From positions 4,448,001 through 4,512,000 of the forward strand of contig OZ242214.1 in assembly GCA_965206595.1 (NCBI GenBank): DNA of 64,000 nt, given 5' to 3'. The notes under the pieces were generated by a model. The model was not told the DNA's origin, ran no database searches, and saw nothing but the letters and a program-made list of their open reading frames with translations. Within the stretch, counting starts at the first letter, position 1. The number at the start of each line of letters is the position of its first letter. Below are positions 28,547 through 51,993 of the stretch, piece after piece. The position numbers and the translations under genes are program-made. The stretch is from Candidatus Latescibacterota bacterium (GTDB taxonomy: Bacteria; Latescibacterota; UBA2968; UBA8231).

Positions 28547-28556
28547 GCCGTCGACG

Positions 28557-28862
28557 ATGACACGGGAGGAGACCCCAAAGCCGGAAGGCTGGGACCCGGT
28601 GTTCCTGCACTCCCGCCGCGAGTCCCTGGTGATCTTCGCGGTCTGGCTCGCGGCGCTGGCCTGGGCGGTTCCCTTCTGCTACCTGACCGGGTACCGCGCC
28701 GCAGGTGCGCCGGCCACGGTGCTCGGCATTCCCTCCTGGGCCTTCTGGGGCATCGCCACGCCCTGGATCCTCGCCAACGTCTTCACCGTCTGGTTCTGCT
28801 TCCGGTTCATGGAGGACGACCCGCTCGAAGCGTCCGCAGCCGACCCGGAGCAGGGGAGTTGA
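28557..28862 (+). CDS. DUF997/YhdT-like small membrane protein
   Basis: Two TMs, GIPSWAFWG; coupled to the downstream symporter as yhdT-panF is. Confidence 0.7.
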   Translation: MTREETPKPEGWDPVFLHSRRESLVIFAVWLAALAWAVPFCYLTGYRAAGAPATVLGIPSWAFWGIATPWILANVFTVWFCFRFMEDDPLEASAADPEQGS

Positions 28863-32400: not shown

Positions 32401-32532
32401 GCACGGTGGCGGGGGGCGCCGCGGAAGCGACGGCATGAGCGACCATTTCTGGATGGCGGCGGAAGACTTCCCCCGAGCGGTCTTCATGGCGGTGGCCCGG
32501 CGTTTCAGGAAACGGAACAGGGCGCAGACGGT

Positions 32533-33429: not shown

Positions 33430-33602
33430 GGCCGTGTCCTGGCTCGCCCATATTCCGCCGCGGCAGGGGGCCGCATCCCGGGCAGGTCCATTTGCCGCGA
33501 ACAATTGCGGTTCAGTCCAGGAAACTTCACTTGCGTGCGGTTCCTCTCCTCGATTCCTGACCAGCCCAACTGCGGCAATCCTTTCCCGCACAGGAGCCAG
33601 GC

Positions 33603-34484
33603 ATGGATGACAGGGAGCGGTATTACTGGGACCTGACGGGGTACCTGATCGTCAAGGGAGTCCTCGGTCCGGAGGAGCTGCAAAGGGCCAACGAGGCGGT
33701 CGATTACTGTCTTCAACACCACGTCTTCGATCCGGTGATGGATTCCGCCCGCCAGTCGCGGGCCCTGGGCGGTTCGCAGCGGCGGGCAATCCAGACCGAC
33801 ATGGTCCTGCTGACCCTGGAGAAACCGCACTGCGATCCGTTCCGTGAGATGCTCGCCCACCCGCAGGTCGTCGCCCGGCTCAACGTCATGTGCGAGCCCG
33901 GGTTCCGGTTCGATCACGGCCCCCACTTCATCGGCGGCGTCCGGGGAACGGAGGGCTTGGTGATGCACGGGGCCGGCGAACCCCACCGGCCGTTCGTCGG
34001 CTACCACCACCAGGGCGGCGAGTTCCACTGCCAGGGGGTGACCGTCTCTTGGTGCCTGGCCGATGCGCGCGCCGGCGACGGCGGCTTCGCCTGCGTTCCC
34101 GGCAGCCACAAATCGCGCGAGCCGATGCCGCCGGGAGTGCGGTCGTGCGACGCCGACATGGGCGTCGTCGAGCAGCCGGTGGTCGAAGCGGGGGACGTGC
34201 TGTTCTTCATGGACGGCGCCCAGACCCACGGCACCCTGCGGTGGAACGCCGACCACGAGCGGCGCTCCATCCTGTTCAAGTACGCCGGCCGCACCGCCTC
34301 CCGGGGAGGGGCCTCGCGGGAGGTGTCCCGGCCCGAGCGCTACTGGCCCGCGGAGATCGTCGGCGGCATGAGCGATGAGCAGCGGGCGGTGATGTTCGGG
34401 CCCTGCTCCGCCCCGGGGACGGACGAGGTGTTTCTGCGGGTGGATGAGGACGGCACGGTCCGCGTCGACAGGAAGGACGGTTAG
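33603..34484 (+). CDS. PhyH-family dioxygenase (tandem paralogue)
   Basis: WDLTGYLIV, MHGA, GGFACVPGSHKS, THGTLRW. Confidence 0.85.
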   Translation: MDDRERYYWDLTGYLIVKGVLGPEELQRANEAVDYCLQHHVFDPVMDSARQSRALGGSQRRAIQTDMVLLTLEKPHCDPFREMLAHPQVVARLNVMCEPGFRFDHGPHFIGGVRGTEGLVMHGAGEPHRPFVGYHHQGGEFHCQGVTVSWCLADARAGDGGFACVPGSHKSREPMPPGVRSCDADMGVVEQPVVEAGDVLFFMDGAQTHGTLRWNADHERRSILFKYAGRTASRGGASREVSRPERYWPAEIVGGMSDEQRAVMFGPCSAPGTDEVFLRVDEDGTVRVDRKDG

Positions 34485-34488
34485 CCGG

Positions 34489-35370
34489 TCAGGACCCGGC
34501 GGGGCCCAAAAGCGTGTCGAGTGGGCTCTCGATACGCACCAGGTCCTTCCGCTGCACGTGGGTGTAGATCTCCGTCGTTTTCGAGCTCCTGTGTCCGAGG
34601 AGCTCCTGGATGTAGCGCAGATCGGTCCCCCCTTCGAGCAGGTGCGTCGCAAAGCTGTGTCTCAGGGTGTGCACGGTCACCCGCTTGCGAATTCCCGCGG
34701 CGGCGACCGCACGGGAGAACACCTTCTGCACCGACCGTTCGGTGAGATGCCGTCCTTCCCGGGCTCCGGGAAACAGCCACGTCGACGGCCGGTAAGCCTT
34801 CCAGTAGGACCGAAGATCCTCGAGAATCGCCCTGGGCAGCAGGGTGTAGCGATCCTTGCGCCCCTTGCCCTGCTGCACGCGGATCAACATGCGATCGCTG
34901 TCGATGTCGCTCACCTTGAGACGCACGACCTCCCCCACACGCAGCCCCCCGGCATACACCAGGGCCAGGATGACCCGGTGCTTGGGATTCCGAAGGGAAT
35001 CGAGCAGTCGCAGCATTTCCCGCTGGCTGAGGATTTCGGGAAGCTGGCGACCGCCACGCGGCCTGCGCAGACCCTCCAGGGAGGCGGGCTGCTTAAGGAC
35101 TTCCCCGTAGAGGAAGCTGAGAGCACTGTATAAAATGTTGAAGGCGGAGCGGCTCACCCCGCGGTCGAGGAACCATTCGAGGTGGGACCGCACCTCGTCA
35201 TGCCGTTCCCCCCGGTAGTCCCGTTTCCACTGAAGGAATCGCCGGCAGTAGCCCATGTACGACTTCTGCGTTTTCCTCGCGTACCCCCTCAGCTTCAGCT
35301 CGGACTCGACCCGGTTCAGGATGGCGACCTCTTCGTCGGTCAGGTCTGGATGTCTCCGATAGCGCCGCAT
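34489..35370 (-). CDS. Tyrosine recombinase (integron-integrase-like, N-terminal SAM-like domain) lacking the IntI insertion
   Basis: LKLRGYARKTQKSY, YAGGLRVGE, GKGRKDR, HTLRHSFATHLLE, LLGH, TEIYTHV; only RPST between YWKAY and WLFP. Confidence 0.9.
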   Translation of the reverse strand: MRRYRRHPDLTDEEVAILNRVESELKLRGYARKTQKSYMGYCRRFLQWKRDYRGERHDEVRSHLEWFLDRGVSRSAFNILYSALSFLYGEVLKQPASLEGLRRPRGGRQLPEILSQREMLRLLDSLRNPKHRVILALVYAGGLRVGEVVRLKVSDIDSDRMLIRVQQGKGRKDRYTLLPRAILEDLRSYWKAYRPSTWLFPGAREGRHLTERSVQKVFSRAVAAAGIRKRVTVHTLRHSFATHLLEGGTDLRYIQELLGHRSSKTTEIYTHVQRKDLVRIESPLDTLLGPAGS

Positions 35371-35505
35371 GGGCCCGGTTACTCCAAGGCAAAGGTTTGG
35401 CCCTGCCGTAGAGAAAGCCGTGCCAGTCCGACACGGAAACCGGAAATCGTCCTATCTGTCGCAACCGCAATGAGTCACGTCGGATATCCCGAATCGGGAA
35501 AATAG

Positions 35506-35534
35506 TTGCAACTGTTCATCCCGAAACGTACCAT
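35506..35534 (+). promoter_or_regulatory. Candidate cassette promoter (Pc-like)
   Basis: TTGCAA(35506)-17-TACCAT(35529) pointing into the array. Confidence 0.5.
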
Positions 35535-35565
35535 CGTATCAGATAAGTAACACCCGGAGGCCATT

Positions 35566-35600
35566 ATCCGAACCATTTGTTCGGATTCAATCAGTTATGC
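35566..35600 (+). other. attI-like primary recombination site
   Basis: Inverted repeat ATCCGAAC-CATTT-GTTCGGAT (35566-35586), then G|TTATGC (35594); its downstream sequence is complementary to the end of cassette 1. Confidence 0.7.
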
Positions 35601-35652
35601 GAATTTGCGCTCAGGGTTGACGTAAAGAAATCAAACGAAAGATAGCTACGCC

Positions 35653-36519
35653 TTGAAAGTGACGTTTCTCGGAACATCATCCGCTCCGTCGATGCCTATA
35701 CCGTTTTGCGTTTGTCAGGCGTGCTCAAACGCAAGGCGAGTTGGTGGAAAGAACCTTCGCAGGCGATCGTCCATCACAATCAACGACGAAGTGCTTGTGG
35801 ATATTGGCCCAGACATAGCGACCGCGTCATTCGATTACGACGTTTCGTTGACCGGAATCAGCGTCTGCCTATTGACTCATGCCCACGAGGACCACTTTGA
35901 TGCCGAGTTCATCATATCAAGACACGATGAATACGCAACTATCGTCGCACAGGACATGCTCCTTGCGGGTTCAATCGACGCGCTGAGGTCTATTGACACG
36001 ATTCTAGGCAGAAGGTGCTCGTACGGAAGCATCTTCGATCAAGAAACACAACGTGCCCTGAAGGTTAATCTGTTGACCGTCGAGCCATTCGAGACTCAAG
36101 TTGTCGGTGATTACCGTTTCACAGGATATCCCGCGAGTCACGGCACCGAGAAGGGATGCCTGCTTTACTCAATCGAGCAAGGTCAGCACGCTATATTTTA
36201 TGGTACTGATACATCGATTCTGTCGGAGAGAGTTTGGGAGCATCTTCTGCGCCAAGGCACGCAGTTCGACTTGCTCGTGCTCGATCACACGTACGGCATC
36301 GGTTTCGATGCTAGTCCGGCAGATCATCTGGCATCCGTTGATGTAATAGGCCACGTCGATCGCTTTCGGCGAAACGGTCTTCTTAAGGACAACGCGAAGG
36401 CATACGCGACTCACATTTCGCACGAAGGTTACATGGAGCATGACGAACTCGACGAGTATGCCGAAGCGCACGGTTACAGAGTCGCGTTTGACGGATTGGC
36501 GCTATCATTCAGTGTTTGA
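35653..36519 (+). CDS. Cassette 1: MBL-fold metallo-hydrolase (PhnP-like)
   Basis: FLGTSSA, CVCQAC, THAHEDH, YGTDT, THISH. Confidence 0.85.
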   Translation: MKVTFLGTSSAPSMPIPFCVCQACSNARRVGGKNLRRRSSITINDEVLVDIGPDIATASFDYDVSLTGISVCLLTHAHEDHFDAEFIISRHDEYATIVAQDMLLAGSIDALRSIDTILGRRCSYGSIFDQETQRALKVNLLTVEPFETQVVGDYRFTGYPASHGTEKGCLLYSIEQGQHAIFYGTDTSILSERVWEHLLRQGTQFDLLVLDHTYGIGFDASPADHLASVDVIGHVDRFRRNGLLKDNAKAYATHISHEGYMEHDELDEYAEAHGYRVAFDGLALSFSV

Positions 36520-36541
36520 ACAAGACACGAGCGCAAAACTC

Positions 36542-36632
36542 GCATAACAGCACGGTGTTGCGCGGCGGCGCATTCGCGCCTTGGCCTTCGGCAACCCACT
36601 TCGTGGGTTCGCAAACCGGCAGAACGTTAAGC
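36542..36632 (+). repeat. attC-like site 1 (type A)
   Basis: GCATAAC...CGGTGTTGCG/CGCAAACCG stem, internal hairpins...GTTAAGC. Confidence 0.8.
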
Positions 36633-36972
36633 GAAGGCCAAGAGAATTTGATTGTTTTTGTGGAGTATAGATCATGATAGGGAGTGGGAGGGATCGGTAC
36701 TATCCGACCCAGGTCGGCGCTGTTTGAAGAGATGGGCAGCTCGTCGTTTGTGGATTTCCCCACCCCGTCCGGCGCGCTAATACCGCTTGGGCGTTGCGTT
36801 TTACCTGGTTCAGGAAAAAGACGAGATCAATGGGCAGTTGGAGATCAGGACCTGCGGATTGGGAGACCGACGAAAGATGGAGGGCTGAGCAAGGGCGCCG
36901 GACGGCCTCTCCACCGCCCAAGCCCGAGAGTTTTCTCCCATCGTGGTCGGGCAGAGCAGGCCCTCGCTTAAC
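36627..36972 (+). ncRNA. Cassette 2: ORF-less structured element (candidate ncRNA)
   Basis: No credible ORF; paralogous to cassette 3; 11-bp helix 36765-36775/36895-36905. Confidence 0.5.
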
Positions 36973-37050
36973 ACCTGTGTCCCCGGCTCCGGGCCCTGGG
37001 GGCCCCTCGCGCAACCGCTTCGCGGTTCGGGGGCACGGAAGACGTTAAGC
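36966..37050 (+). repeat. attC-like site 2 (type B)
   Basis: GCTTAAC...CTGTGTCCCCG/CGGGGGCACGG, AACCGC-TTC-GCGGTT...GTTAAGC. Confidence 0.82.
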
Positions 37051-37381
37051 GAAGGCAAACGAAGTTTTAAGGATTGTGTGGAGTATAGATCATGATAGGG
37101 TGTCGGAAAGGTCGGTGGTATCCATCGAATGTGGCGCAATTTGCGAGGTGGGCACCTCGTCGCGAGGGACTATCCCCACCCCGTCTGGCGCGCTGTTACC
37201 GACCGTGCGTTGCGTGCCGGTTACGAGATAAAAGCCCATCGGTCGAGATCTCGGAAGCTGGCTCACGATTTAGAGTTGGAATGGAGATGGCTCAGGGAGA
37301 AGGGCGCCAGACGGCCTCTCCACCTCCCAAGCCTGAGAGGTCTTTCTCTTCGTGGTCGATGTGTGCAGGCCCTCGCCTAAC
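37045..37381 (+). ncRNA. Cassette 3: ORF-less structured element (candidate ncRNA)
   Basis: Paralogue of cassette 2; helix 37181-37191/37304-37314 carries a compensatory change. Confidence 0.5.
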
Positions 37382-37458
37382 ACCTGTTCCCCCGGCTCCG
37401 GGCCCTGCGGGCCCTTCGCGCAACCGCTTCGCGGTTCGTGGGCACCAAGACGATATAT
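37375..37458 (+). repeat. attC-like site 3 (type B, core mutated to GATATAT)
   Basis: GCCTAAC...GGGCCC-TGC-GGGCCC, AACCGC-TTC-GCGGTT...GAC GATATAT. Confidence 0.78.
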
Positions 37459-37550
37459 GACATGGGTTGTCACAGTACCAGTGAAATTCGACAGAGGCAA
37501 AGCTGGCACGGTTGAAATCATGAGCCTGCAGGCGCTGGAGAAAAACTGAC

Positions 37551-38042
37551 GTGGATCGCGTAGCCGTATTCGCAGATGTACAGAATGTTTACTACACAGT
37601 TAAGCAGCAACATAATTGCCATTTCGACTATGGTTCTTTCCTCAGGGAGGCGACAGCCGGCCGGAAACTGGTGAAGGCAGGAGCCTATGCTATTGACAAA
37701 GGCGACAGAAAGCAGGCCCAATTTCAGCAAATTCTGAAACGGCTCGGTTTTGAGGTAAAGCTCGCGCCTTATATTCAGAGAGCTGACGGCTCAGCCAAAG
37801 GGGACTGGGACGTGGGCATTACGGTCGATATGTTGGAGTACGCAGATCGCGTGGATGTCGCTGTCCTGGCTTCAGGTGACGGAGACTACGCGCCTGCAAT
37901 TGACAAGCTAATCAAGGAATCCAAGGTATCCGTCGAGGTGTACGGTGTCCCAGGACTAACTGCTAGTCGTCTAATCGAATCGTCGACGCGATTTGTGCCA
38001 ATTCAAGGAGATCTGTTGCTGCCTATTCCCACCACGTGGTGA
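37551..38042 (+). CDS. Cassette 4: NYN domain (LabA/DUF88) protein
   Basis: VFADVQNVYY, KGDWDVGITVD, LASGDGDY. Confidence 0.88.
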   Translation: MDRVAVFADVQNVYYTVKQQHNCHFDYGSFLREATAGRKLVKAGAYAIDKGDRKQAQFQQILKRLGFEVKLAPYIQRADGSAKGDWDVGITVDMLEYADRVDVAVLASGDGDYAPAIDKLIKESKVSVEVYGVPGLTASRLIESSTRFVPIQGDLLLPIPTTW

Positions 38043-38140
38043 CGTGGAAGCGACACTGTTGCAAAGCCATGCACGCTAACGCACTCTCGCGTCGCTACCT
38101 CTCTGCGTTGATCAGCCTTGGAGCAATCATACCCACGTCA

Positions 38141-38161
38141 TATATACGGAAGACGTTACCT
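38141..38161 (+). repeat. Collapsed attC-like site 4 (internal hairpin missing)
   Basis: TATATAC-GGAAGAC-GTTACCT; flanks are complementary to neighbouring cassette ends. Confidence 0.65.
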
Positions 38162-38190
38162 GCCATGGCAGTGCCCAGAAGGAGAGACAC

Positions 38191-39323
38191 ATGAAGGCCC
38201 TGACATCCATTATCGCCGCCTCAATCCTTCTCCTCTCGCCCATCCTCGCCCACGAACGAGAAGAACCCCCGGAGGGAGCCGTGGCCCGAACCGTCCTGCC
38301 AGACGCCAAGATGCCGATCATGAACGAGCACTCCCGTTCCACCCTTGTCTGCGCGATGTACGCCCTGCTGCCGGCTCTCGGGCAACAGGGCTGGTCGATC
38401 CCTCGACTGGAAGCGCTGACGGGATACGCCTTCTACTTTCAGATGCGGGAGGGCGGCGAGTCGGTCTTCGACGACGATCTCGATTGGGGCCTGGCCATGC
38501 ACGTCCTCGACATCTTTGGTCAAGCGAAAGTCTATGATGCGGACAAGAACTCGGACGTTGATCTCCCTGCGCTCAAGGCCGAAGCGCGAGACGCAGTCGT
38601 CGCCAGCCTGGAGAACGGACTTCCCAGCCTCGTCTGGGCGCCACTGAGCCTGGAGCAGAGGGGCAAGGTCCATTTCGCATGCTGGGGCCTCATCGTCGGC
38701 TACAACGCGGCAGACGAAACATACTTGATCCGCCAACCGGCCGAGAAGCTCGACTACCCGGTCCGCTTTGACGCCATCGGGTTCGCCGATCCGAGAGATT
38801 GGTTCCGCGTCGGCACCTTCAAGCCGAAAGAACTTGACGACAACGCTCTGCACCTCACCTCACTCCGCAATGCCGTCGCCTTCGCGAACGGCACTCGCTA
38901 CGACAACCCCCCAGGTCCGTCGAGGCCGCCCTCGTGCATCCCCCGAAAAACCCCTATGGATTCGCCGCCTACGAGCTCTGGCAGGAAGCGTTCGAATCTG
39001 ACGTAAATCTGAACGCCACGTTCTTCCACACAGAAACCCTGAAACCGCGTAGAGAGGCCGCGGCCGCCTACCTGCGGGAGCTCACCCATGTCTATCCGGC
39101 CGCCGCCAATCCGCTGGAAGCAGCAGCCGTTCACTATGATCGAGAGGTCGAATCCATCACCGCAATCTTCGACCTGTGCGTTGCCGCCACCAAGCACGAG
39201 CCCAAGGCCTTCACCCCCGACCAGCGCGCCGAAACCCGCTCCCTCATCGCCCAGCCGTTGAAGGCCGACCGGGCCGCCGTGGCGCAGATCGAGGCCGCGC
39301 TCAAGATTCTGGAGACGCCGTGA
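38191..39323 (+). pseudogene. Cassette 5: secreted hypothetical protein, frameshifted near 38940
   Basis: AGGAG RBS, signal peptide; ORFs 38191..39006 and 38934..39323 join at C/A homopolymers. Confidence 0.65.
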
Positions 39324-39407
39324 GGCAGGCTCAGCGTGCTCTTGACCGGGGCCCATCGTGAGGGGGGAGTACGCTGTTTCTTTGCCGATTCTCAAACTGC
39401 CACAGGC

Positions 39408-39490
39408 AGGTAACACGTCCGTGCCCGGCTTCGGGCTTACGCCCTTCGCGCAACCGCTTTCGCGGTTCGGGCACGGCGAAAACGTTATGT
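39408..39490 (+). repeat. attC-like site 5 (type B)
   Basis: AGGTAAC, perfect CCGTGCCCG/CGGGCACGG stem, two inner hairpins, GTTATGT. Confidence 0.82.
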
Positions 39491-39538
39491 GACATGGAAT
39501 AACTACCCCTAGATGAAATTTTCGCTCTACGAGCTATA

Positions 39539-40345
39539 ATGACAGAAGCAAAAGTTCTCTCACAAGATGACCTCGACCACTTCGAGACACATGGCTACAT
39601 CATTTTTCGCGGCGCATTTGATCCAGATGACTGCCGGCAGATGGAGGACATTGTCTGGCGTTGGTTGGAACGGCATGGTATCATGCGGAACGACCCCAGC
39701 ACCTGGGATCGGAATCAGGCAGGTGGGCTAAGCCGGACGGTTCGATCTACCCGTGTATTTCGCGATGCAGTATCAGAGCAGTTCGTATCGGCGATCGATC
39801 AGCTGTTGGGAACAGGTAGTTGGGAGAAACCCCGAGATTGGGGCAGTTTTGTGTTCTCGTTCCCCGAAGCCCTCGATGAACAGTGGAATGTCGCTAGCGG
39901 GAATTGGCACTGGCGCAACTCGGGTCTCCGCAACGTGGATAAGCTTGATGGGCTTTTCAATTTCTCGTTCATAACCGAGGTTCAATCTCACGGCGGTGGA
40001 ACGCACATAGCCGACGGGAGTCATCACCTGATAAGGCACTTCTACCGCACGCAAGAGAGCCTGTTTTCCCGGAACGACAGGATAGTCAAGAAGAGGTTCT
40101 TTAGTACTCATCCATGGCTCAGGGAACTGACGCAGGCAAGCGAGAATTCCATCACTCGCGTCAGACGGTTTAGGGATCAAACGACTGATGTTAATGGATT
40201 CCCCGTCCGCATCATTGAGTTGACCGGGAAGCCTGGTGACGCCATGATCGGCCATCCACTCCTGATGCACTGTCGGTCAACGAACTGTGCTGACGTGCCG
40301 AGGTTCATGAGGGCCTGTGAAATACACACGACCGCTGACAAATAG
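39539..40345 (+). CDS. Cassette 6: PhyH-family dioxygenase-like protein
   Basis: HFETHGYIIFRGAF, GGGTHIADGSH, GKPGDAMIGHPLLMH. Confidence 0.8.
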   Translation: MTEAKVLSQDDLDHFETHGYIIFRGAFDPDDCRQMEDIVWRWLERHGIMRNDPSTWDRNQAGGLSRTVRSTRVFRDAVSEQFVSAIDQLLGTGSWEKPRDWGSFVFSFPEALDEQWNVASGNWHWRNSGLRNVDKLDGLFNFSFITEVQSHGGGTHIADGSHHLIRHFYRTQESLFSRNDRIVKKRFFSTHPWLRELTQASENSITRVRRFRDQTTDVNGFPVRIIELTGKPGDAMIGHPLLMHCRSTNCADVPRFMRACEIHTTADK

Positions 40346-40377
40346 TTTGGAACCAATCTTCCATTCGGGACCACGTC

Positions 40378-40398
40378 ACATAACGAAGAACGTTTATA
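40378..40398 (+). repeat. Collapsed attC-like site 6
   Basis: ACATAAC-GAAGAAC-GTTTATA. Confidence 0.65.
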
Positions 40399-40454
40399 CG
40401 AACTGAGAAAACCAATCATCGTGAATCCGAGGCGAATCAGACAAGGCTTTACGA

Positions 40455-41174
40455 ATGATCCTTGAAGCATTGAATGATCTTTTCACATCAGAATTGCTGG
40501 CTGCCCACCCTGAAGAATGGGGCGTGACCGATCATTGTGATCCGCCTTCCAGCGTAGGGTACGCGACCACGATTACTCCGAGGGCTATTTCGACGGCACT
40601 CGACCGTGGTGCCGACGTAATTGTCACGCATCATGACGCCTGGGATTTCATGTATGAACAAAGAGAGCAGGTATACGATCTCTTACGCGACAACAGCCTG
40701 ACCCATGTATGGGCCCACTTGCCGTTGGACCAGTCCGACTTTGGCACATCGGCTACGCTTCTCTCGAAAATTGGCTGCGTGGAGGTCTGCAAGCCATCGA
40801 AAGGTGAAGTACGCATTGGTGAACTGGATGAATCAACTGACTTCGAGGCGATCCGTTTGAAGCTCGATTCCCTATTGCAGGAACAACCACGTAGCCTCCA
40901 TGATTGGGGTCGAGCCATCCGCAGAATAGGCTGCGTGACTGGGGCGGGCGTCTACACGAGTTACCTCAAGGATGCGATGCCCCATGATATTGACCTTTAT
41001 CTGACAGGAGAGACTAACCTTTACTTATTGGAGTATGCCGTCCACCTTGGACTCAGCGCCCTGGTTTACTCCCACAACTATACCGAGTTGCCAGGAGTCC
41101 ATATGTTCGCAGAGCGTTTTTGCCAAGCTCTTCAACTCGAGATGAAGGGACACCTCGGTGACTCTCACTTCTGA
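40455..41174 (+). CDS. Cassette 7: Nif3-like dinuclear metal centre protein
   Basis: VTHHD, AHLPLD, VTGAG, LYLTGE, HNYTE. Confidence 0.85.
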   Translation: MILEALNDLFTSELLAAHPEEWGVTDHCDPPSSVGYATTITPRAISTALDRGADVIVTHHDAWDFMYEQREQVYDLLRDNSLTHVWAHLPLDQSDFGTSATLLSKIGCVEVCKPSKGEVRIGELDESTDFEAIRLKLDSLLQEQPRSLHDWGRAIRRIGCVTGAGVYTSYLKDAMPHDIDLYLTGETNLYLLEYAVHLGLSALVYSHNYTELPGVHMFAERFCQALQLEMKGHLGDSHF

Positions 41175-41195
41175 TTCGGTAAAGCGACTCAATTC

Positions 41196-41287
41196 GTATA
41201 ACACCGCGGCGTTGCGCTGCGTCGCTGTTGCTCCTTGGCCTCCGGCAATCTGGCAACGCCAGATTCACAAACCGTGAAACGTTATAT
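41196..41287 (+). repeat. attC-like site 7 (type A)
   Basis: GTATAAC...CGGCGTTGCG...CCTTGGCCTCCGGCAA...TTCACAAACCG...GTTATAT; similar to site 1. Confidence 0.78.
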
Positions 41288-41299
41288 GAAATATCTGAA

Positions 41300-42061
41300 A
41301 TGAGAAAAGAAGAATCAATTGACGGAGACTATCTGGCCCCAGCGAAATACGACAAATACTACGACGCGTAGGCTACGCTTCCAGAACGGTTTCTGGCTGA
41401 CCTCGCCTCTCGCGGAAGGGTCCTTGAACTGGAATTTGGAACTGGCCGGATAGCAATTCCCCTGGCGGAGAACGGCCTTGAGGTGACCGGGATCGATTAT
41501 TCCGAGCCGATGGTAAGCCTTGCCAGATCAAAGGCCGAAGACAGACAGGTGAGGGTCGACTGGATCCGCGACGATATACGCTGCTTTGACACCGGTAAGC
41601 GATATGGGTCGATCTTGCTACTGCACAACGCATTATGGCACCTGCACAACCTTTCCGATTTCGAAGAGTGCATTCGCTGTGTGAAGCGTCATCTCCTTCC
41701 GGGTGGTTTCTTCATTTTGGACGTCTTTGTCCCTGGGGTGGAGATCCTCAATCGCGACCCAGGCATTCGGTACCCATTCTCTCGCTACACGGACGATGAC
41801 ACGGGACAAGAAGTGCAGGTTACTCAGTCCTACAGGTATGAAGCAGACACCGAGATCGCGCGCATGGTGCACTACAGAAAGGACTCTGATGAGATCGTTG
41901 GGGGTCTGAATCTCCGGATGTATTTCCCGAAGGAACTGGATGCCTTGCTGAAGTACAACGGGATAAGGATCAAGGAGAAATTCGGGAGCTGGGACCGTGA
42001 CCCCTTTGGGCCGGACTCCAGGCATCAGCTTTGTTTCTGCACCACCATGGAGGACGGCTGA
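41300..42061 (+). pseudogene. Cassette 8: class I SAM-dependent methyltransferase with in-frame TAG at codon 24
   Basis: ATG 41300 is in frame with ORF 41483; TAG 41369-41371 precedes motif I VLELEFGTGRIAIPLA. Confidence 0.75.
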
Positions 42062-42334
42062 GCAGCCGGAATCGCATATCGGATATCACTCCAATTCACC
42101 CGGCGTCCGCCGCTCCCCTGAGGCTGTGCCCACCCCGCATGCGCGAGACCGGAATTGTGAGAAAGTCTGGGGACCTTAGGATGAATTGGTCGCGAGATAC
42201 AGGAGATGATACAGGCATGTCCAACCTGAAGGACGGGACCTTCGACAAGCGCGTCGATTACGACCCGGATAGCAATGTTCCTGTCCTGTCCCCGGCATAC
42301 GCAGTGGACTTCGAAGAATTTCGAGAGGTAGGTG

Positions 42335-42870
42335 ATGAAATCTGAATACGTGATGGCGTTGATTTTCGAATTCTGGGCCTTCTGTTGGGACTTCAAGCAG
42401 TAGCCTTCATCCCGGGCATAATGTTGGCGACTTCAGAGCCGTTTTTCGGGGGTTCGCCAACATGGCCGCTCGTGATGCCTCAAGTGCTCGTATGGGTGCT
42501 GTGTCTGCCAGTAGCTTTCGTGTTGTTTCGCTACGAACGATGGCTTGCCAACCTCGTTGTGGCTGAAGACGAGCATCTGGAACTGGCGGGAGTGGCCGTA
42601 GAGACCGCCGATACCCTACCGGTTTTTCGTTTGCTCTTGCGCGTTGTTGGCGCATTCGTTGTTGCCTGGTCGGTGCCCGAGTTGGCCGGTCATGGTTTCG
42701 CCCACGTGATGCTGTACCAGATGAGCGGCCCGCAAATCTGGACTCAGATCGCCCCGGGCGTTGTGAAGCTGGCTATAGGCGTATATCTGCTCAAAGGTGG
42801 GACACACCTTGTACGCTTCGCGTACGGCTCCCAGCCCATATCCGATTACCCAGGAAATGACGAAACCTGA
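42335..42870 (+). pseudogene. Hypothetical membrane protein, 5' frameshift
   Basis: ATG 42335 out of frame with hydrophobic ORF 42385..42870. Confidence 0.5.
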
Positions 42871-43005
42871 TTACATGCCAGTCTGGAAAGGCATAAGAAA
42901 GTCGTTTCCGTGAGGAGGTCATTTGTCGTGTAACAGCGCCATTCCGGATGGAGCTTTCACCTTCGCCAGAATGCTTCTTAAGTTCGGGAAACCGGCCGAC
43001 TTGCT

Positions 43006-43362
43006 GTGAGAAGTGCAAGATCAGATCGATCAGAATCGAGGACTCCCGATGAATGGCAGGACAGGTACGTATTTGACACCCAAGGTTACGTGGTGCTTCC
43101 CGACATCCTCACTCATTCCGAGGTTGAGCGCCTCGTCGACGCCTTCCCGAGGGATGACAAAGGCCAGGTCATGCTCGAAGCTCCTGACGACAACTCACAT
43201 CATGACAACAGCATCCAGGGAAGGGTGCTCGATCATCGAGCTCTGATTGAGGCCAGCGTCACCGGCTACCTGGGACGCAGCTGCATGAAGCATCCTGCCG
43301 CCTGGGACATCGGTTCCGTCGGTAGCCTGGGGCCCATCAGGATCGCCCTGATAGGGCACTGA
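43006..43362 (+). pseudogene. PhyH-family N-terminal fragment
   Basis: RYVFDTQGYVVLPDILT, then truncated. Confidence 0.5.
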
Positions 43363-43432
43363 TTCTCACCGAATCCGACCGGTATGTCCTCAAGGCAGTA
43401 GGCGATTTGATTGGAAAAAGGGGGCCCTCGAT

Positions 43433-44176
43433 ATGCCAGGTTTCATGTCATGGAAGGAAATGAACTGGCTTCTGCCTGACTTTAATGAGACCGGGTTGAT
43501 CTACCACGGAAGTCAGCCTGAAAATCTGGCTTCTATCTTCCAGAATGGCCTGATTCCCCAATACAATAGTCCCAGAGATGGGCACGAAACAATCTACAAT
43601 GCACACTACCGGTACCGGCCCAAGTCCATTCCAGACTGGGTGGATCCGAGACGATGTATTTTTGGTTACATGAACCGGGCCAGGCAAGGAGGCTGGGGCG
43701 GCATTGTGGATGGAATAGTCAATGGTGTAACCATTGGCATTAAAGCAGCAGATCATATCACTGAGCGGACCTGGACAGCCTGCGTCCGGTTTTCAGATAT
43801 GGTGGACTGCCCGGAGGAGGCAGGGTACTTCGATACGGAGGAGAGAAAAGCCTTTTTCAAGGACAGAATGGAACCGGTTTCGTGTAAAGCATACTGGGAG
43901 ACCAGCCTCTCATTTCACGATAACTTGAAGATTCGCCTGGATCATTTGCTCCCGATGCAGGGAAATCATGAGCTATTGATTTGTTCGGAGATTGATCCTG
44001 GGTTACTAAATCTTCGAGGGTTCAGAGTGCGGGGGGCAAATGGAACACGCGAGGTTGTCAGCAATGACCTGTCCGAGGTGTTTCTGAATGCCGAAGAAAA
44101 GCTTCGGAACAACATGCCAATTGTGGGGGAACTGAAGGCCGTCAGCGAATTCTGCGGCCGTTCGGCCAGCGCCTGA
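43433..44176 (+). CDS. Hypothetical protein
   Basis: 247-aa ORF; YHGS...SIFQNGL weakly recalls ADP-ribosyltransferase/DarT-like N-termini. Confidence 0.65.
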   Translation: MPGFMSWKEMNWLLPDFNETGLIYHGSQPENLASIFQNGLIPQYNSPRDGHETIYNAHYRYRPKSIPDWVDPRRCIFGYMNRARQGGWGGIVDGIVNGVTIGIKAADHITERTWTACVRFSDMVDCPEEAGYFDTEERKAFFKDRMEPVSCKAYWETSLSFHDNLKIRLDHLLPMQGNHELLICSEIDPGLLNLRGFRVRGANGTREVVSNDLSEVFLNAEEKLRNNMPIVGELKAVSEFCGRSASA

Positions 44177-44365
44177 CAACAACGGTTTCCCTTTGAACTG
44201 CGGCGGTATTTGCACGGCCGGGCTCAAAGGTGCGTAACAACCCGGGGAGACCAGAGCCTGGTGACCGCACCCTGAAAGAATGCGGGCAGCTGTGGCGGCC
44301 ATGAAAAACGCAGGTGGGTATTGGCTTGGAGCTGAACCCAACAACGCCAACGAGGAGTCCCGAGA

Positions 44366-44707
44366 ATGAAAGAGATTGCGCCCACACTTCCGGTATCCGA
44401 TGTCCAGAAAGCTGTCGAGTTCTATCGGGGCAAGTTGGCGTTCAGTGTCGGTTTCCAGAATCATCCCGTCTTTGCTTTGGTTCGGCGCGGCGCTGTCAGT
44501 ATCGGTTTGCAGCTTGCTTCGCAGCGACGGCCAGCCGGGACAGGAAGTTGCTACATCTGGGTGGATGATGTCAGGGAAATTTATAATGAGTTGTCCGGAA
44601 GAGGAGTTGAATTCGCAGATGACATCGCGTTTCGCGATGAATATGAAATGACCGACTTCGTCCTCCATGATCCGGATGGGAACCACATCGGGATTGGCGG
44701 AAACTGA
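44366..44707 (+). CDS. VOC/glyoxalase/bleomycin-resistance family protein
   Basis: LPVSDVQKAVEFY, FVLHDPDGNHI. Confidence 0.85.
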   Translation: MKEIAPTLPVSDVQKAVEFYRGKLAFSVGFQNHPVFALVRRGAVSIGLQLASQRRPAGTGSCYIWVDDVREIYNELSGRGVEFADDIAFRDEYEMTDFVLHDPDGNHIGIGGN

Positions 44708-44807
44708 GGGGGTCATGAATGCGAATCTGGCAGGTTCCATCGCCCTGACTCCACCTCTAAGGCCAATGGGGGTAAAAAGCGGACGTTCTTAGTGGAAGCT
44801 CGATTCC

Positions 44808-45593
44808 ATGGAACTGACCAGAGATGACATTGAAGCGGGCTTTCGTAATCTCGGCCTGAAGGAAGGCGAAACAGTTGAAGTTCATAGCTCATTGAGCAGC
44901 TTGCGCAATGTGCAAGGGGGAGCTGAAACTGTCGTGGATGCCTTGATGAGTGTCGTGGGCGAAAGTGGAGCGTTGGTGATGTCCAACTATCCGCTCACCC
45001 CCCCGATCCCCTTGACTTCCGAGGAGAAATCCAAAGGAATAGGTTGGAAACTCAGAATTCTGACCGAGGACTCAGACGAAAGGACGGTGACCGGCGCCAT
45101 TTCCGACGAGTTTCGCTTCAGAGCTGATGTTGTATGCGGTTCTGGGACCCGTCGTGTCTGTGCCTGGGGCCGGGATGCGGATTTGCACGCCAAGGGATAT
45201 CGACACTTGCTCGAAGTCGATGGGCTGGTTCTTCTCCTTGGTGTAGACATAGATCGATGTTCAAGCATGCATCTCGCCGACGGAGTGAAGGTTACCAAGG
45301 AGGCCAGGGAGCGGATGAATGCAATATGGCCTGATCCAGGGTGCAAAATCACGGACGAAGTCAGGCGGGAATATCCTTCAGATATAATCATTGGCCCCAG
45401 GGAAGGGACATCTGGAAATCCTTGGGAAAATGCCAGACAGGAAGCTGAAAGACGAGGATTGATAAGGAGAGGTAAGGTCGGTCAAGCAGACTGCTTGCTA
45501 TTCAGGGCGAGGGATCTAGTCGGTCTGATTGAGAAAGTTCGTAAATCTGGGCCTTTCAAAGACGCATTGCAGAACATTTTTGACGAGGAATAA
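44808..45593 (+). CDS. AAC(3)/YokD family N-acetyltransferase
   Basis: VHSSLSSL..V.GGAETVVDAL, GAISDEFR, LLLGVDIDRCSSMHLA. Confidence 0.8.
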   Translation: MELTRDDIEAGFRNLGLKEGETVEVHSSLSSLRNVQGGAETVVDALMSVVGESGALVMSNYPLTPPIPLTSEEKSKGIGWKLRILTEDSDERTVTGAISDEFRFRADVVCGSGTRRVCAWGRDADLHAKGYRHLLEVDGLVLLLGVDIDRCSSMHLADGVKVTKEARERMNAIWPDPGCKITDEVRREYPSDIIIGPREGTSGNPWENARQEAERRGLIRRGKVGQADCLLFRARDLVGLIEKVRKSGPFKDALQNIFDEE

Positions 45594-45672
45594 GGATGGC
45601 GCTGATAGCTCAGCGCGGAGAAAGCAGGGCAAAGGTCCAAGACGAACCGCGGCGGACCTGGCCGGAATGACT

Positions 45673-47034
45673 ATGCAATACTTCCAACCTGGCGGCGACT
45701 TCTTCGTCGGCGACTGCATGCCCTTTTACCACGATGGTGTCTTCCGGCTCTTCTACCTTCTGGACGAGGGCCACCACGGAGCACTCGGCGGGTTGGGAGG
45801 CCATCAGTGGGCACAGGCAAGCACGACGGACCTCCTTCACTGGGAACACCATCCGCTCGCCATCCCGATCACCGAGGAGCGTGAAGGTTCCATCTGCACC
45901 GGTTCGGTGTTCTTCCACGAAGGGACATACTACGGTTTCTACGCGACGCGCATGCGCGACAGGACGCAGCATCTGAGTCTTGCGACCAGTCACGAGGGCG
46001 TCCACTTCCAGAAGACCGAACCCAATCCGTTCGCTTCGCCGCCTCCTGGCTACGACCCGGTCCATTACCGTGACCCGTTCGTCTTCCAGGATCGCGGTGA
46101 AGGACTCTTCCACATGCTCGTTACGGCGTGCCTGGAAGACTGGCCCATCGGCGACCGCGGCGGGTGCCTTGCCCACCTGGTTTCCGCAGACTTGAAACAC
46201 TGGGAGAACAGAAAGCCGTTTATCGTGCCGGGTCTGCCGGGGGCGCCCGAATGTCCGGATTATTTCTTCTGGAATGGCTGGTACTATCTCGTATTCAGCA
46301 ACCGCGGGGTCGCCCGCTACAGAATGTCGCGAGAGCCCTTCGGACCCTGGCTTCGGCCGCAGGTCGACGCCCTTGACGGAGCTGCTGCACGGGTAATGAA
46401 GACTGCGCCATTCGGGGACGGCAGGCGCCTTGGTGTTGCCTGGATCGGCACACGCGAGAACAACCGGGACGATGGACCGTTTCAGTGGGGGGGCAACGCC
46501 GTATTCCGAGAACTGATCCAACATGACGACGGCACTCTTGGTGCGAAGTTTCCGGAGGAACTGACCCCTGGCGGTGACCCGCTGTCCGCTCTGCACCTGT
46601 CCGCGCTCGATGCCGATACGAGAGTTGAGGGACGCAGTGTCCACGCAGCAGCTCGGCAAGGCCTGGCAGCGGCCGGCTGTTCCGGCATTCCACGCAATGC
46701 GCGACTGGCAATCCGTGTCCTTCCTCAGCCAGGCTCCCTGGGTTTCGGGCTTCGCCTCCGGGCTGGTGAGACATTCGACTCAGGATGCGACCTGGACTTC
46801 TCACCCTATGACCGGGTCGCCAGGCTGCACGATCAGTGGATATATGGTGTCGATGGACTGGATCGCCCCTTCTCCCTGGAGATAGTTCTCAGGGACGACA
46901 TCATTGACGTTTGCATCGACGGCCGCAGGACGCTTATCGATCGATGTCCGGAAAGGCGGGGCGACCGGATGCTGCTGTATGCGCAGGATTCGGGGGTCAC
47001 GTTTGAGGTTGCCGAGATCGCTGCTCTGCCGTAG
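45673..47034 (+). CDS. Glycoside hydrolase family 32-like
   Basis: GDCMPFY, ICTGSV, YRDPFV, ECPDYF. Confidence 0.82.
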   Translation: MQYFQPGGDFFVGDCMPFYHDGVFRLFYLLDEGHHGALGGLGGHQWAQASTTDLLHWEHHPLAIPITEEREGSICTGSVFFHEGTYYGFYATRMRDRTQHLSLATSHEGVHFQKTEPNPFASPPPGYDPVHYRDPFVFQDRGEGLFHMLVTACLEDWPIGDRGGCLAHLVSADLKHWENRKPFIVPGLPGAPECPDYFFWNGWYYLVFSNRGVARYRMSREPFGPWLRPQVDALDGAAARVMKTAPFGDGRRLGVAWIGTRENNRDDGPFQWGGNAVFRELIQHDDGTLGAKFPEELTPGGDPLSALHLSALDADTRVEGRSVHAAARQGLAAAGCSGIPRNARLAIRVLPQPGSLGFGLRLRAGETFDSGCDLDFSPYDRVARLHDQWIYGVDGLDRPFSLEIVLRDDIIDVCIDGRRTLIDRCPERRGDRMLLYAQDSGVTFEVAEIAALP

Positions 47035-47149
47035 CGCAGAGAGAATTGCGGGCCACACCACCCGCCACCAATCCCCAACACCCGGGGAACAGAAGCTGGG
47101 GTTCACAAACAGACAGCCCGTTAGGCGCCAGTCGAGGAAACTCCCGAAC

Positions 47150-47764
47150 GTGAAACGGACGGCCACCAAAATCCCACTCAGGGTGCAGACAACGCGGTTG
47201 GAAACCTTCAACCGCGAACGTCACGCCTGGCCGGTCTCCCTGCGCCGGAAGTGCTCGGCGGATTCGGGGCGAACCTGGGTCTTCACGGATGGTGGCGGTG
47301 ATGGGCGGTTCGGGGCTGTCGTTGTGCGTCCGGGAATCGAAGAACACCGGATGGCGGGACGCCGCGGATCACGGACCAACAGCGTGGTTGCCGAACTCGA
47401 TGGGGTCGTGTTGGGTCTGGAGAATTGCCGACTGGGTGAGAGAATCACGATCGTGTCCGACTATCTGTGGACAGCATACTATATCAACGGCTGGCGCCGC
47501 GTACACCATCCTCGGCTTCGTGAAGGAGTTGTACATGCGAGGAGGCGTCTGGAAAAGCTGCGGGGCGCCGTGTTCGTGCATTACGCGCTGGAAACCGGGG
47601 GCGAATGTGCCTTCAGACGATGGAACGCTGTCGCTCATGACCTGTGTCAAAAGGACATGGTCGGGACCAACTCGCGTACTCCTTGGGACCAGACCAAAGC
47701 GTTGGACATTGTTTCGGAATATCCCCTGAATAGACGGGGACATACCGCATTGTCCCCGGTATAG
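47150..47764 (+). CDS. RNase HI-like protein
   Basis: VFTDG, TNSVVAEL, IVSDY, WNAVAHDL; follows GTTAGGC core at 47120; start uncertain. Confidence 0.6.
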   Translation: MKRTATKIPLRVQTTRLETFNRERHAWPVSLRRKCSADSGRTWVFTDGGGDGRFGAVVVRPGIEEHRMAGRRGSRTNSVVAELDGVVLGLENCRLGERITIVSDYLWTAYYINGWRRVHHPRLREGVVHARRRLEKLRGAVFVHYALETGGECAFRRWNAVAHDLCQKDMVGTNSRTPWDQTKALDIVSEYPLNRRGHTALSPV

Positions 47765-47797
47765 GCAGACACGTCACCTAAAAAGGAAACGCGCAAA

Positions 47798-48565
47798 ATG
47801 GGACACTGCTGGACGCTTGCCCTTGAACAGCAAACGGACCTGACCTCATCCCACGGCTCGGTTTCCGAGTTGGCGGCAGCAGTACGCCGAGGCGCGGATC
47901 TCCGGCTTTACATGACCACGGATCGGTACGAGGAAACCCTCTACTTCCAGCAGACTTATGCCGGTGAGAATGGCGCGTTCGCAGGGCTGATGAGCCACCA
48001 CCACAGCTACGTGCACCGCGGCCAGGACATAGAGCAACCATACATCAGCATCTTCAAATACGACGACTCCGGGAGCTTCTCCCACGTGAAGTGGATGTCG
48101 GGTGATGTGCGCATGGATGAGAGCCAGGCCTATTCGTACGGGATATATCGGTGGTTTATCTGCGACCGCTGGCGAACCGTCTACGAGCACGATGCCGATG
48201 GCAGTCCCGTGCGCGGAAATCTGGAGGAACTGAAAGAGCATGTCCGGCTGGGGCACTCGGTTCAGGTAGGAGTCCGCCAACTGTTCGGTTTGGCCGAGGA
48301 TACCACTGCCGGGCCATCGCACATCTCGTTTGTCACCACGATGCAGCCGCTCATCCGGGATGCCCATGTGCAGTCCAACTGCGACCTCGTTGCGATAGGC
48401 GCCCCGAAATGGCCGTGCACCTGGCGCGACGGCCTCCATGTGGCAGTGATGCTCCCCTCCACGTCCGGTGAGATTCTTTGCTTCCTTGCCGAACCGGGGA
48501 ATCTCCCGTTTAGACGGGTCATGCGCCGGCGCCCCATGCAGTGGATGGTGGCGGAGATGGAGTGA
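47798..48565 (+). CDS. Hypothetical protein
   Basis: 255-aa ORF with AAGGA RBS. Confidence 0.7.
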   Translation: MGHCWTLALEQQTDLTSSHGSVSELAAAVRRGADLRLYMTTDRYEETLYFQQTYAGENGAFAGLMSHHHSYVHRGQDIEQPYISIFKYDDSGSFSHVKWMSGDVRMDESQAYSYGIYRWFICDRWRTVYEHDADGSPVRGNLEELKEHVRLGHSVQVGVRQLFGLAEDTTAGPSHISFVTTMQPLIRDAHVQSNCDLVAIGAPKWPCTWRDGLHVAVMLPSTSGEILCFLAEPGNLPFRRVMRRRPMQWMVAEME

Positions 48566-48645
48566 ACGCGCGAACCGTTGAATGAACCGCCAAACCCGGA
48601 ATGGGGAACAGGAAAGCGTTGCCGCCGGGAAACCAACCGAGGAAT

Positions 48646-49094
48646 ATGCCAGGAAAACCGATCCAGGTGCTTGTGATTCCATTCCGCATGGGATCTGAGC
48701 CGGAGTTTGCGGTTTTTCACCGTTCCGACGAGGAGATGTGGCAATTCATTGCCGGCGGCGTTGAGGACCGGGAAGACGCAATGCGGGCCGCCCGGCGGGA
48801 GGCGGAAGAAGAGGCGTCCATCCCGAGTGATTTGCCGTTTGTGCGGCTGGATTCGGTTGCTTCCGTTCCCAGGACAGCATTTGAAGAGACGGAGCACTGG
48901 CCGGAAAATCTGCTCTTGTACCCGAGTATTCGTTCGCTGTCGATGTCGGCGACCGAGAGCTGGTGCTATCCTTCGAACACGACGAGGTGAGGTGGGTGCC
49001 TTACGACAAAGCCCGGTGCCTCCATACATGGAACAGCAATCGGGTGGCGCTCTGGGAGCTCAATGAAATGAAAGCCTGCCGCAGACAACAGTGA
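48646..49094 (+). pseudogene. NUDIX pyrophosphatase (NudB-like), frameshifted near 48915
   Basis: WQFIAGGVEDREDAMRAARREAEEE; alternative frame continues PEYSFAV...EHDEVRW...SNRVALWEL. Confidence 0.75.
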
Positions 49095-49239
49095 GGTCTT
49101 CCAGAACTTTTCTGTAGTCTTCCGGGTTCGTAATTCCACAAATAAATCGCTATTCGCCTTGACGCTGATCAGGAGGTCCGAGGGCAGTTTCATTGTTTGG
49201 GGATAATTGGTCCAAACCTTGAGACAGGGAGAAAAGGAA

Positions 49240-49800
49240 TTGTTCGCAAAACTCTTCGTCGTATGCCTCATTGTTGTCGGTTCATGTTTCGGAGTCCAGG
49301 CTGAGCGTCCGGCGGGAATGGTGCTCTATTTCAAGTCCGGAGACGAGGTATTCCTGCTTCTCGCGGATCACCGGGAAAAGGACAGAGGTTGGGCCGGTTA
49401 CGGAGGCGGTCCGGATGAGGGGGAGAGCCAGGCTGAAACGGCGGCGAGAGAAGCGGAGGAAGAGACGAGAGGCTACTTTCTGCGGGATGATCTGCTCGAC
49501 ATGATCAAGGGACAGGAGTCAGTGATAGACAATGGCTTTGCCTTGTACTTCGCGGAAGTCCCCTTTGTTCCCGCACAACTTGTGACCAACAATCCACTTC
49601 CCAGCGACGATGAATCCTACGTTGAAAGAGGTCCGTATGAGGGAACGATCGGAGGCGCCTGTAAAGCGTCTTCTCGACCCACTCGCCATCCAGCAAAAGG
49701 GCATACCTGTCCGGAAAACTCAAGTTTTCCTCGCCGGAAAAAAATTGGCCCCTGCATTACGCGCAGGCGCGAAGACCTGACTTTGGATGTGTTGCGTAAC
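49240..49800 (+). pseudogene. NUDIX-domain protein, 3' end disrupted
   Basis: GGGPDEGESQAETAAREAEEETRG Nudix box; the downstream ORF runs antisense into nadE. Confidence 0.6.
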
Positions 49801-49898
49801 GAAGGGGCCGTTCTTTTATGCTTGTTCATAACGGCATATCCGGTAGTGCGGTTCGTCAAGCAACTATCTCCAATGCGATATAAACGTTTCCTATTCCC

Positions 49899-51833: not shown

Positions 51834-51993
51834 TCAGAGTCCCCGCTCAGCGCCGGGTCGCAAGGGAAAGGGGCGGAAAGAGGCCGCGCCTGCAGGAGGA
51901 GGTGGCCCCCCCGGGACGCGACCCGCCCGAGAGCGCGCCGGTCATAAGGAAGAATCCGGAAAATCCGGGCTGCCGAGGCTTTCTGGAGGACCG

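Follow-up and report, generated by a model that had tools for sequence, protein, structure and literature searches.

An integron-type cassette platform headed by an IntI-like tyrosine recombinase without the I2 segment in a Candidatus Latescibacterota genome

Sedentary chromosomal integrons, such as that of Vibrio cholerae, consist of a divergently oriented integrase gene, an adjoining attI site and co-oriented, mostly single-gene cassettes. Their attC sites are hairpins with AAC/GTT cores, which cross over at G|TT, are chimeric and resemble one another within a lineage, and the integrase gene is often decayed. The locus analysed here resembles them in each of these respects. It occupies positions 34489 to 49850 of a 64,000-nucleotide stretch (the window) of a Candidatus Latescibacterota genome (assembly GCA_965206595.1, contig OZ242214.1), and its tyrosine recombinase, P0001, has the V. 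cholerae integrase structure 2a3v as best match among solved structures. However, P0001 lacks the I2 segment of the integron integrases (IntI), falls under the cut-off of the integron integrase model TIGR02249, and groups with I2-less recombinases outside the monophyletic canonical IntIs. The attC sites of the window type also appear to differ, as in an alignment fitted to a predicted structure their L stem shows no conserved extrahelical bases and the extra bases of the R-L loop lie on the L'-R' arm. We consider it likely that the locus is a sedentary chromosomal integron whose integrase comes from an IntI-like lineage without the I2 insertion.

Three articles (PMC7790495, PMC9024848, PMC9668308), in the pertinent sections, define the integrase by its I2 domain and ascribe single-strand recombination to it; detection tools also demand this domain. 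With standard tools, the window locus would probably be listed as a cluster of attC sites lacking an integron integrase (CALIN; Cury et al. 2016); unlike a CALIN, the array has at its head an attI site and a conserved recombinase that is under selection. In their account of such cases, Cury et al. 2016 (PMC4889954) describe 21 recombinases neighbouring attC sites without intI_Cterm in IntI-free genomes, judged not to be IntI, of which the four phylogenetically intermediate ones had fewer than three attC sites each, whereas one orthologue of P0001 has as many as 17 sites within 18 kb. In the literature consulted, no published I2-less recombinase heading attC arrays was found; the supplementary tree and tables of Cury et al. 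2016 may bear on this point. The XerC, XerD and XerA resolvases share with P0001 the fold, the length, the N-terminal SAM-like domain and the lack of I2; the window gene, in contrast, is far below the XerC and XerD cut-offs, is accessory, and is tied to cassette arrays rather than to dif.

The recombinase and the missing I2 segment

P0001 is encoded by a single-copy gene at 34489-35370 on the reverse strand, and translation gave an uninterrupted reading frame of 293 amino acids. The protein contains the phage-integrase catalytic domain PF00589 (141.8 bits) and the N-terminal SAM-like domain PF13495. The catalytic set is complete: R144, K169, R237, H260 and Y269 do not vary in an alignment of 52 sequences, and H234 hardly does. 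The intact recombinase with R, K, HxxR, H and Y residues proposed in an earlier sequence-only reading of the window is thus borne out, and the interval that it quoted, LRSYWKAYRPSTWLFP, is present in the translated protein.

TIGR02249 is the top NCBIfam model for P0001; however, the score of 223.6 bits remains under the cut-off of 265 because about 41 residues, which correspond to the IntI-specific I2 region, are missing. In the genome-level search, the match was split into profile positions 1-179 and 235-315 of 315, and positions 180-234 were skipped. P0001 was also below the cut-off of PRK15417 (151.1 bits against 435). In homologues taken from 143 loci, the distance between the KDR strand and HxLRH amounts to 59 amino acids in P0001 and its orthologues, 56-68 in other intact insertion-less relatives and 65 in the Xer proteins of relatives, whereas it reaches 99-117 in 15 canonical IntIs, which have an AL.RKYP-like motif. 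A short interval does stand in place of the extra IntI segment, as had been claimed, and P0001 does not score as a canonical IntI, the outcome that had been named as refuting.

The closest solved structure by sequence was VchIntIA (2a3v), with P0001 residues 21-187 aligned on 9-178 and 206-285 on 239-318; at the I2 position, 18 residues of P0001 stand opposite 60 of 2a3v. The AlphaFold model (predicted local distance difference test 84.7, from the 52-row alignment) has helices at 180-193 and 211-225, between which it predicts short strands only and no extra helix. Its best fold match was also 2a3v, with a template modelling score of 0.67.

The length and architecture of P0001 are Xer-like as well, and the XerA-type model NF040815 gave 212.1 bits, just under its cut-off of 220. 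These properties would suit an Xer-like enzyme acting on double-stranded DNA at short palindromes, with resolution, inversion or integration of other elements as its role and the attC hairpins irrelevant to it. Against such an enzyme stand the XerC and XerD models, at 175.0 bits (TIGR02224, cut-off 335) and 175.1 bits (TIGR02225, cut-off 330), and the separate Xer-like gene elsewhere in the genome.

The gene is under strong purifying selection, as the four intact copies (the window genome, G000, with G020, G016 and G056) gave pairwise ratios of nonsynonymous to synonymous divergence of 0.07-0.12 at synonymous divergences of 0.39-1.8.

For the phylogeny, canonical IntIs and I2-less outgroups were drawn from at least 600 distant matches listed, with 33-56% identity. 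A quick tree of 116 rows, from which four broken copies were left out, recovered the canonical IntIs as monophyletic (100) and the window clade (99) within a 33-row I2-less clade (98). A constrained search beat the likelihood of this quick free tree, and a careful, Xer-rooted tree was then built from 65 of those rows. It supported the canonical IntIs (100/99), the window clade (100/99) and the window clade with three metagenome proteins (100/97), and, weakly (71/83), a sister-group relation between the canonical IntIs and the whole set of I2-less rows. A single clade of canonical IntIs and the window clade was kept by the approximately unbiased test (p 0.41). Because the canonical IntIs are monophyletic, P0001 is no recent deletion derivative within the sampled canonical IntIs, and a secondary loss of I2 among them is unsupported. 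On the sampled sequences, parsimony would favour one gain of I2. Additionally, a contig from an Undinarchaeales metagenome-assembled genome (L054) carries two tandem I2-less recombinase genes of the 33-row clade, beside which a crude method found no repeat array.

The attC sites, the attI site and cassette turnover

Seven co-oriented cassettes, bounded by TAAC...GTT sites and divergent from the recombinase gene, occupy 35595-41281 and end at G36626, G37044, G37452, G38155, G39484, G40392 and G41281. Full-length attC sites of 93-102 nt were found on five of them: attC1 (36536-36636), attC2 (36960-37054), attC3 (37369-37462), attC5 (39402-39494) and attC7 (41190-41291). Repeat finding showed that units begin with the inverted repeat of their own end (I25, 36626/36959; I18, 37453/38131; I22, 39483/40371). 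A scan of 33000-53000 for complementarity between GTT starts and AAC ends (at least 10 of 12 positions), which has no chance level attached, returned 33 pairs; five are successive unit boundaries (35594/36548, 36626/36972, 37044/37381, 38155/39414 and 39484/40384), and the rest are scattered. The departures of the cores from GTTRRRY pointed out in the sequence-only reading are real at the junctions GTTATGC (35594), GTTACCT (38155), GTTATGT (39484) and GTTATAT (41281), and are minor.

Alignment of the five full sites gave a predicted consensus fold of 28 pairs, 13 of them with compensatory changes. When the bottom-strand folds were compared with shuffles, the z values were -3.58, -3.61, -0.77, -2.88 and -1.08, so that only three of the five sites fold clearly better than shuffled sequences. 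A covariance model built from these five sites, R1, was run with filters off over 33000-52000. It recovered the five known sites only, and the tail after 41291 was empty; the one other match at E<1 was the reverse strand of attC2 (E 0.016). A scan of 30000-55000 against Rfam, which is without any attC family, gave no match.

At the ends of cassettes 4 and 6, the attC is reduced to R''-7 nt-R' remnants, R''-GGAAGAC-R' at 38131-38160 and R''-GAAGAAC-R' at 40371-40398. Because the same cassettes keep full attC sites in two related genomes (cassette 4 in G001 and cassette 6 in G002), we take both short junctions to be internal hairpin deletions, which may have arisen by slippage across the stem. 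On the same comparison, we rejected the idea that they represent a minimal site type of a new kind. The junctions also resemble classical core sites with arms around a 7-nt spacer, as an Xer-like enzyme would recognise, although their derivation from full sites that survive in G001 and G002 argues against that use.

In 70 aligned attC sites, TAAC/GTTA alone is fixed (66-70 of 70). With the alignment fitted to the structure predicted by the model, 81.5% of cells were paired and 21 of the 28 pairs showed compensatory changes, which none of 500 shuffles reached; slid controls gave 33-36%. Pairing at the outer R-box positions was limited to about half of the sites, which is what chimeric sites should show. 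The L stem comprises nine continuous pairs, with the bulge columns empty in 69 of 70 sites, and the spacers are asymmetric, the R''-L'' spacer being 4 nt in 62 sites and the L'-R' spacer 7 nt in 59. Folds of single sites show scattered bulges, and no extrahelical base is conserved across the 70 sites as fitted to the predicted structure. According to the relevant passages of two articles (PMC5027507, PMC7790495), extrahelical bases sit near L'' and are docked by I2. The apparent joint lack of I2 and of extrahelical bases is suggestive.

The pairing of cassette ends was counted in 52 units delimited by successive R1 sites. Of the 8 nt that precede the R'' AAC, a mean of 5.44 pair with the start of the same unit, against 3.79 for the next start and 3.73 for random starts. 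Pairing with the own start exceeded that with the next in 38 units, tied in nine and was lower in five, and most of the low values came from widely spaced sites, between which another had probably been overlooked.

The divergent intergenic region at 35371-35594, read on the forward strand, contains attI, with the crossover between G35594 and T35595. Alignment of seven genomes showed that this region is conserved from the start codon of the recombinase to CAG|TT, and that the sequences are unrelated beyond. It includes a palindrome, ATCCGAAC-N5-GTTCGGAT, at 35566-35586, with 8-bp arms and a 5-nt spacer. Across four variants from the seven genomes, 98% of its cells are paired and two of eight pairs (five cells) show compensatory changes; one of 500 shuffles matched this paired share and covariation score, and the set of related sequences is small. 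The palindrome may serve for the binding of a recombinase dimer; alternatively, it may fold as part of attI or of the cassette leader. Such an inverted repeat would also be in keeping with an Xer-like enzyme, whereas the crossover lies 8 nt outside it. A scan of the attI region for a Pc promoter gave weak sigma-70-like matches only, with a consensus that may not be that of the host, and a terminator scan was likewise weak.

The first cassette turns over at the exact crossover, both between genomes and between samples. In G001, a genome of the same genus with 96.7% identity across the gene and attI, attI is joined straight to window cassette 4 (37452-38145, 99.3% identity), including its odd ATATATG start. 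Cassettes 1-3 are absent from this genome, different cassettes replace 5 and 6, and 40382-49637 is common to both. In the array of G002, cassettes 5 and 6 stand at separate positions, and the limits of the blocks are the predicted cassette limits. Contigs from public runs of other studies gave further arrangements: a 1.5-kb contig in X13 and X14 extends from 34642 in the recombinase up to 35603 and continues with a unit like cassette 3 and with cassette 4, whereas an X15 contig joins attI (35590) to 37452, the start of cassette 4. Other X15 contigs cover exactly 35594-36558, 37452-38145 and 39452-40384. Junctions with a side shorter than 30 nt (for example 36618 to 39410 and 35553 to 40394) and parts without cover were not used as evidence. 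These comparisons support an attI that adjoins the integrase gene and into which cassettes would enter at G|TT.

Linkage across genomes and competing explanations

The comparison set comprised 61 related genomes, including that of the window. A protein search found orthologues of P0001 with 74-97% identity in eight relatives (G001, G002, G004, G012, G013, G016, G020 and G056), G020 having a second, partial copy. The gene of the window clade is therefore accessory (9 of 61 genomes), and many more full-length members, at 76-94% identity, were found in a metagenome protein collection. About 20 kb was fetched on the divergent side of each orthologue and searched with R1 at E<=1e-5. Sites were found in all eight long orthologue loci, always on the strand of a divergent array, in seven genomes with five genus codes and two family codes. 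The window has five sites at this threshold; the other loci have five (L035, G020), 17 within 18 kb (L036, G004), two (L037, G016), ten (L038, G056), ten (L039, G012), three (L040, G001), three (L041, the second copy of G020) and three (L047, G002). A model-free self-BLAST of L035-L040 gave site clusters in six of six loci, mostly at the R1 coordinates. On the same side of seven distant homologues (50-64% identity), R1 found no site.

Linkage of recombinase, attI and array is conserved: in seven of the eight relatives the gene or its remnant flanks such an array, always in the same divergent orientation; the eighth copy, in G013, lies at a contig end. In the genome-wide search at E<=1e-4, R1 matched in 25 of the 61 genomes, with 9-50 matches in seven of the eight relatives that have an orthologue. 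G013, which is 84% complete, had none. Outside the window, G000 carries eight more sites of the same type in four or five places away from the recombinase (C1:2573-4268, 110115-110697, 3352434-3363601 and 5957183), in a CALIN-like arrangement.

A separate true IntI, proposed as an outcome that would explain the array, was not found: in the 7.05-Mb single contig of G000, no TIGR02249 match is over the cut-off, and the only other match is a weak Xer-like gene. Canonical IntIs over the cut-off occur in 11 of the 61 genomes, and none of these carries a P0001 orthologue. R1 found no site in six loci beside canonical IntIs of relatives (L142, L143, L144, L145, L146 and L148). One of these, L145 from G021, has seven dispersed repeats on its array side that look like another attC type; in the single foldable site, which differs in this from the window-clade sites and as a sample of one is an anecdote, the R''-L'' arm carries three bulges of one base each.

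Taken with the sub-cut-off score and the crossover at G|TT suggested by comparison, the linkage and the lack of an IntI in the genome support the earlier proposal of a non-canonical integron class or a convergent cassette-capture system. The integron-type platform is real and is partly decayed in G000. In the working scheme, the enzyme would be expressed divergently from the array, and circular cassettes would be inserted at attI by a crossover after G35594 and excised between attC sites at G|TT. Recombination would yield chimeric sites, each cassette pairing by its first bases with its own 3' end. The attC sites would be hairpins defined by structure, with fixed TAAC/GTTA cores and a covarying 9-bp L stem, and an asymmetric internal loop of 4 nt and 7 nt would replace the extrahelical bases near L'', which would fit an enzyme without the I2 docking helix. 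Three points of this scheme are inferred: the catalytic role of P0001, the reaction of attC in folded single-stranded form, and the manner in which a harmful second strand exchange is avoided without I2.

Several points weigh against reading P0001 as the integrase of this platform. Five of the nine clade genes are broken: G004 has a stop, G001 and G012 have frameshifts, G002 has lost an internal segment, and the G013 gene is split where its contig ends. Only those of G000, G020, G016 and G056 are intact; arrays therefore persist without an intact copy. The window array itself is decayed, with two deleted attC sites and an 8.5-kb tail without attC. IntI1 loses its activity when its additional domain is deleted (Messier and Roy 2001, quoted in PMC7790495). 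A canonical IntI and window-type attC sites occur together, although not side by side, in two genomes, G023 (39 sites) and G010 (12 sites), so that action of a canonical enzyme in trans on such sites is conceivable. Moreover, the pair and loop counts come from an attC alignment fitted to its own predicted structure, and the public-run material consists of contigs, not reads, and attests presence only.

The strongest alternative is a relic array, in which a canonical, I2-bearing IntI built the cassettes and was later lost, or acts in trans from a transient element, and the I2-less recombinase is a bystander or a replacement with another role. Its support comes from the canonical IntIs of related genomes, their co-occurrence with window-type sites in G023 and G010, the persistence of arrays beside broken clade genes, the reported need for I2 in IntI1, and the judgement of Cury et al. 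2016 cited above. On the other side, none of the nine genomes with a clade gene has a canonical IntI, and the six canonical-IntI loci of relatives are empty of window-type sites. Furthermore, the layout of gene, attI and array is constant in seven genomes with five genus codes, homology stops at the crossover, near-identical recombinase-attI units precede differing first cassettes, the gene is under strong purifying selection, and a second I2-less subclade also adjoins such cassettes. We consider a relic array unlikely. The double-strand Xer-like enzyme, for which the attI palindrome or the R''-7 nt-R' junctions would serve as sites, is highly improbable, since it leaves both the array linkage and the covariation of full hairpins unexplained.

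For the integron with an I2-less integrase, a broader claim can be made, namely that the I2 helix is dispensable for integron-type recombination, that the clade may represent the state ancestral to I2, and that detectors demanding I2 miss a whole class; we give this claim an even chance. If it is true, a conserved, selected I2-less recombinase that heads attC arrays without a canonical IntI means that integron censuses are incomplete, and some elements listed as CALIN have an overlooked integrase. The origin of IntI from Xer-like ancestors would also gain a natural intermediate or an alternative, and the apparent co-variation between the absence of I2 and the absence of extrahelical bases would become a concrete structural hypothesis.

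Cassettes, the low-GC tail and related loci

The GC content is 0.64-0.73 over 28000-35000, 0.49-0.63 over 35500-49999 and 0.65-0.72 after 50000. The sequence-only reading had described this lower-GC region as a co-oriented array of hairpin-bounded units. That description holds for the seven units of 35595-41281; it fails for 41282-49850, in which the covariance model finds no site.

All cassettes are on the forward strand, and their cargo consists of ordinary accessory genes; the platform is of interest rather than the cargo. Cassette 1 (35595-36626) carries an open reading frame (ORF) of the metallo-beta-lactamase fold at 35653-36519 (PF12706, 45 bits). Cassette 2 (36627-37044) has a 95-amino-acid ORF at 36684-36971 without a family match, and the ORF of cassette 3 (37045-37452), at 37092-37460, is its paralogue. 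These two cassettes (36627-37452) form tandem paralogues with blocks 77-87% identical, spaced 409-418 nt apart and both starting with GTTAAGC, which reflects either duplication of a cassette or two captures of related cassettes. Cassette 4 (37453-38155) carries an NYN-domain ORF at 37551-38042, and its start, ATATATG, has A for the first T. Cassette 5 (38156-39484) has no family match, an ambiguous coding strand and a negative GC skew. Cassette 6 (39485-40392) carries a weakly PhyH-like ORF at 39539-40345, and cassette 7 (40393-41281), which is common to G001, carries an ORF of the NIF3/DUF34 family at 40455-41174.

The tail, from 41282 to about 49850, consists of co-oriented, unrelated genes on the forward strand without a detectable attC and is 93-97% identical to G001; it ends where a high-GC NAD synthase gene begins, whose named matches are proteins from Latescibacterota or Gemmatimonadota metagenome-assembled genomes with 67-73% identity. 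Its cargo includes a methyltransferase fragment, a glyoxalase, an AAC(3)-family acetyltransferase, a GH32 gene, two NUDIX genes and several unknowns, which are probably fossil cassettes. The acetyltransferase ORF, at 44808-45593, matches the aminoglycoside 3-N-acetyltransferase family (PF02522, 101 bits). The ORF at 47798-48565 encodes 255 amino acids without a family match, and in each of the four runs the summed contig depth over it is 5-20 times that over its neighbours. Behind this ORF, contigs of X13 and X14 depart from the window sequence and show an R''-like TCTAACA instead; the array tail of G012 holds a copy with 91% identity. It looks like a widespread cassette gene that has been fossilised in the window.

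The second I2-less subclade, with 50-64% identity to P0001, is represented by L136 (G010), L137 (G012 C1), L138 (G052), L139 (G023 C2) and L141 (G059). Its genes lie upstream of, and co-oriented with, cassettes that end in the window attC type, in the order gene, unrelated ORF (APH-like, GNAT, unknown or beta-propeller) and attC. In L139, 12 sites at E<=1e-5, or 15 at E<=0.1, stand behind a truncated gene. The orientation is that of the 'inverted-integrase' integrons, for example of Treponema; however, the integrases published under that description in PMC4889954 carry the IntI domain, which this subclade is without. An IS91-type reading of the co-oriented homologues was rejected, as the loci have no IS91 transposase and carry unrelated cargo ORFs between gene and attC; one locus has a Mutator-family transposase. 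Among the more distant I2-less loci, self-BLAST gave dispersed repeats in L056, L092, L053, L063, L098 and L121, with a method of low sensitivity that returned none in the canonical-IntI controls L118, L127 and L129.

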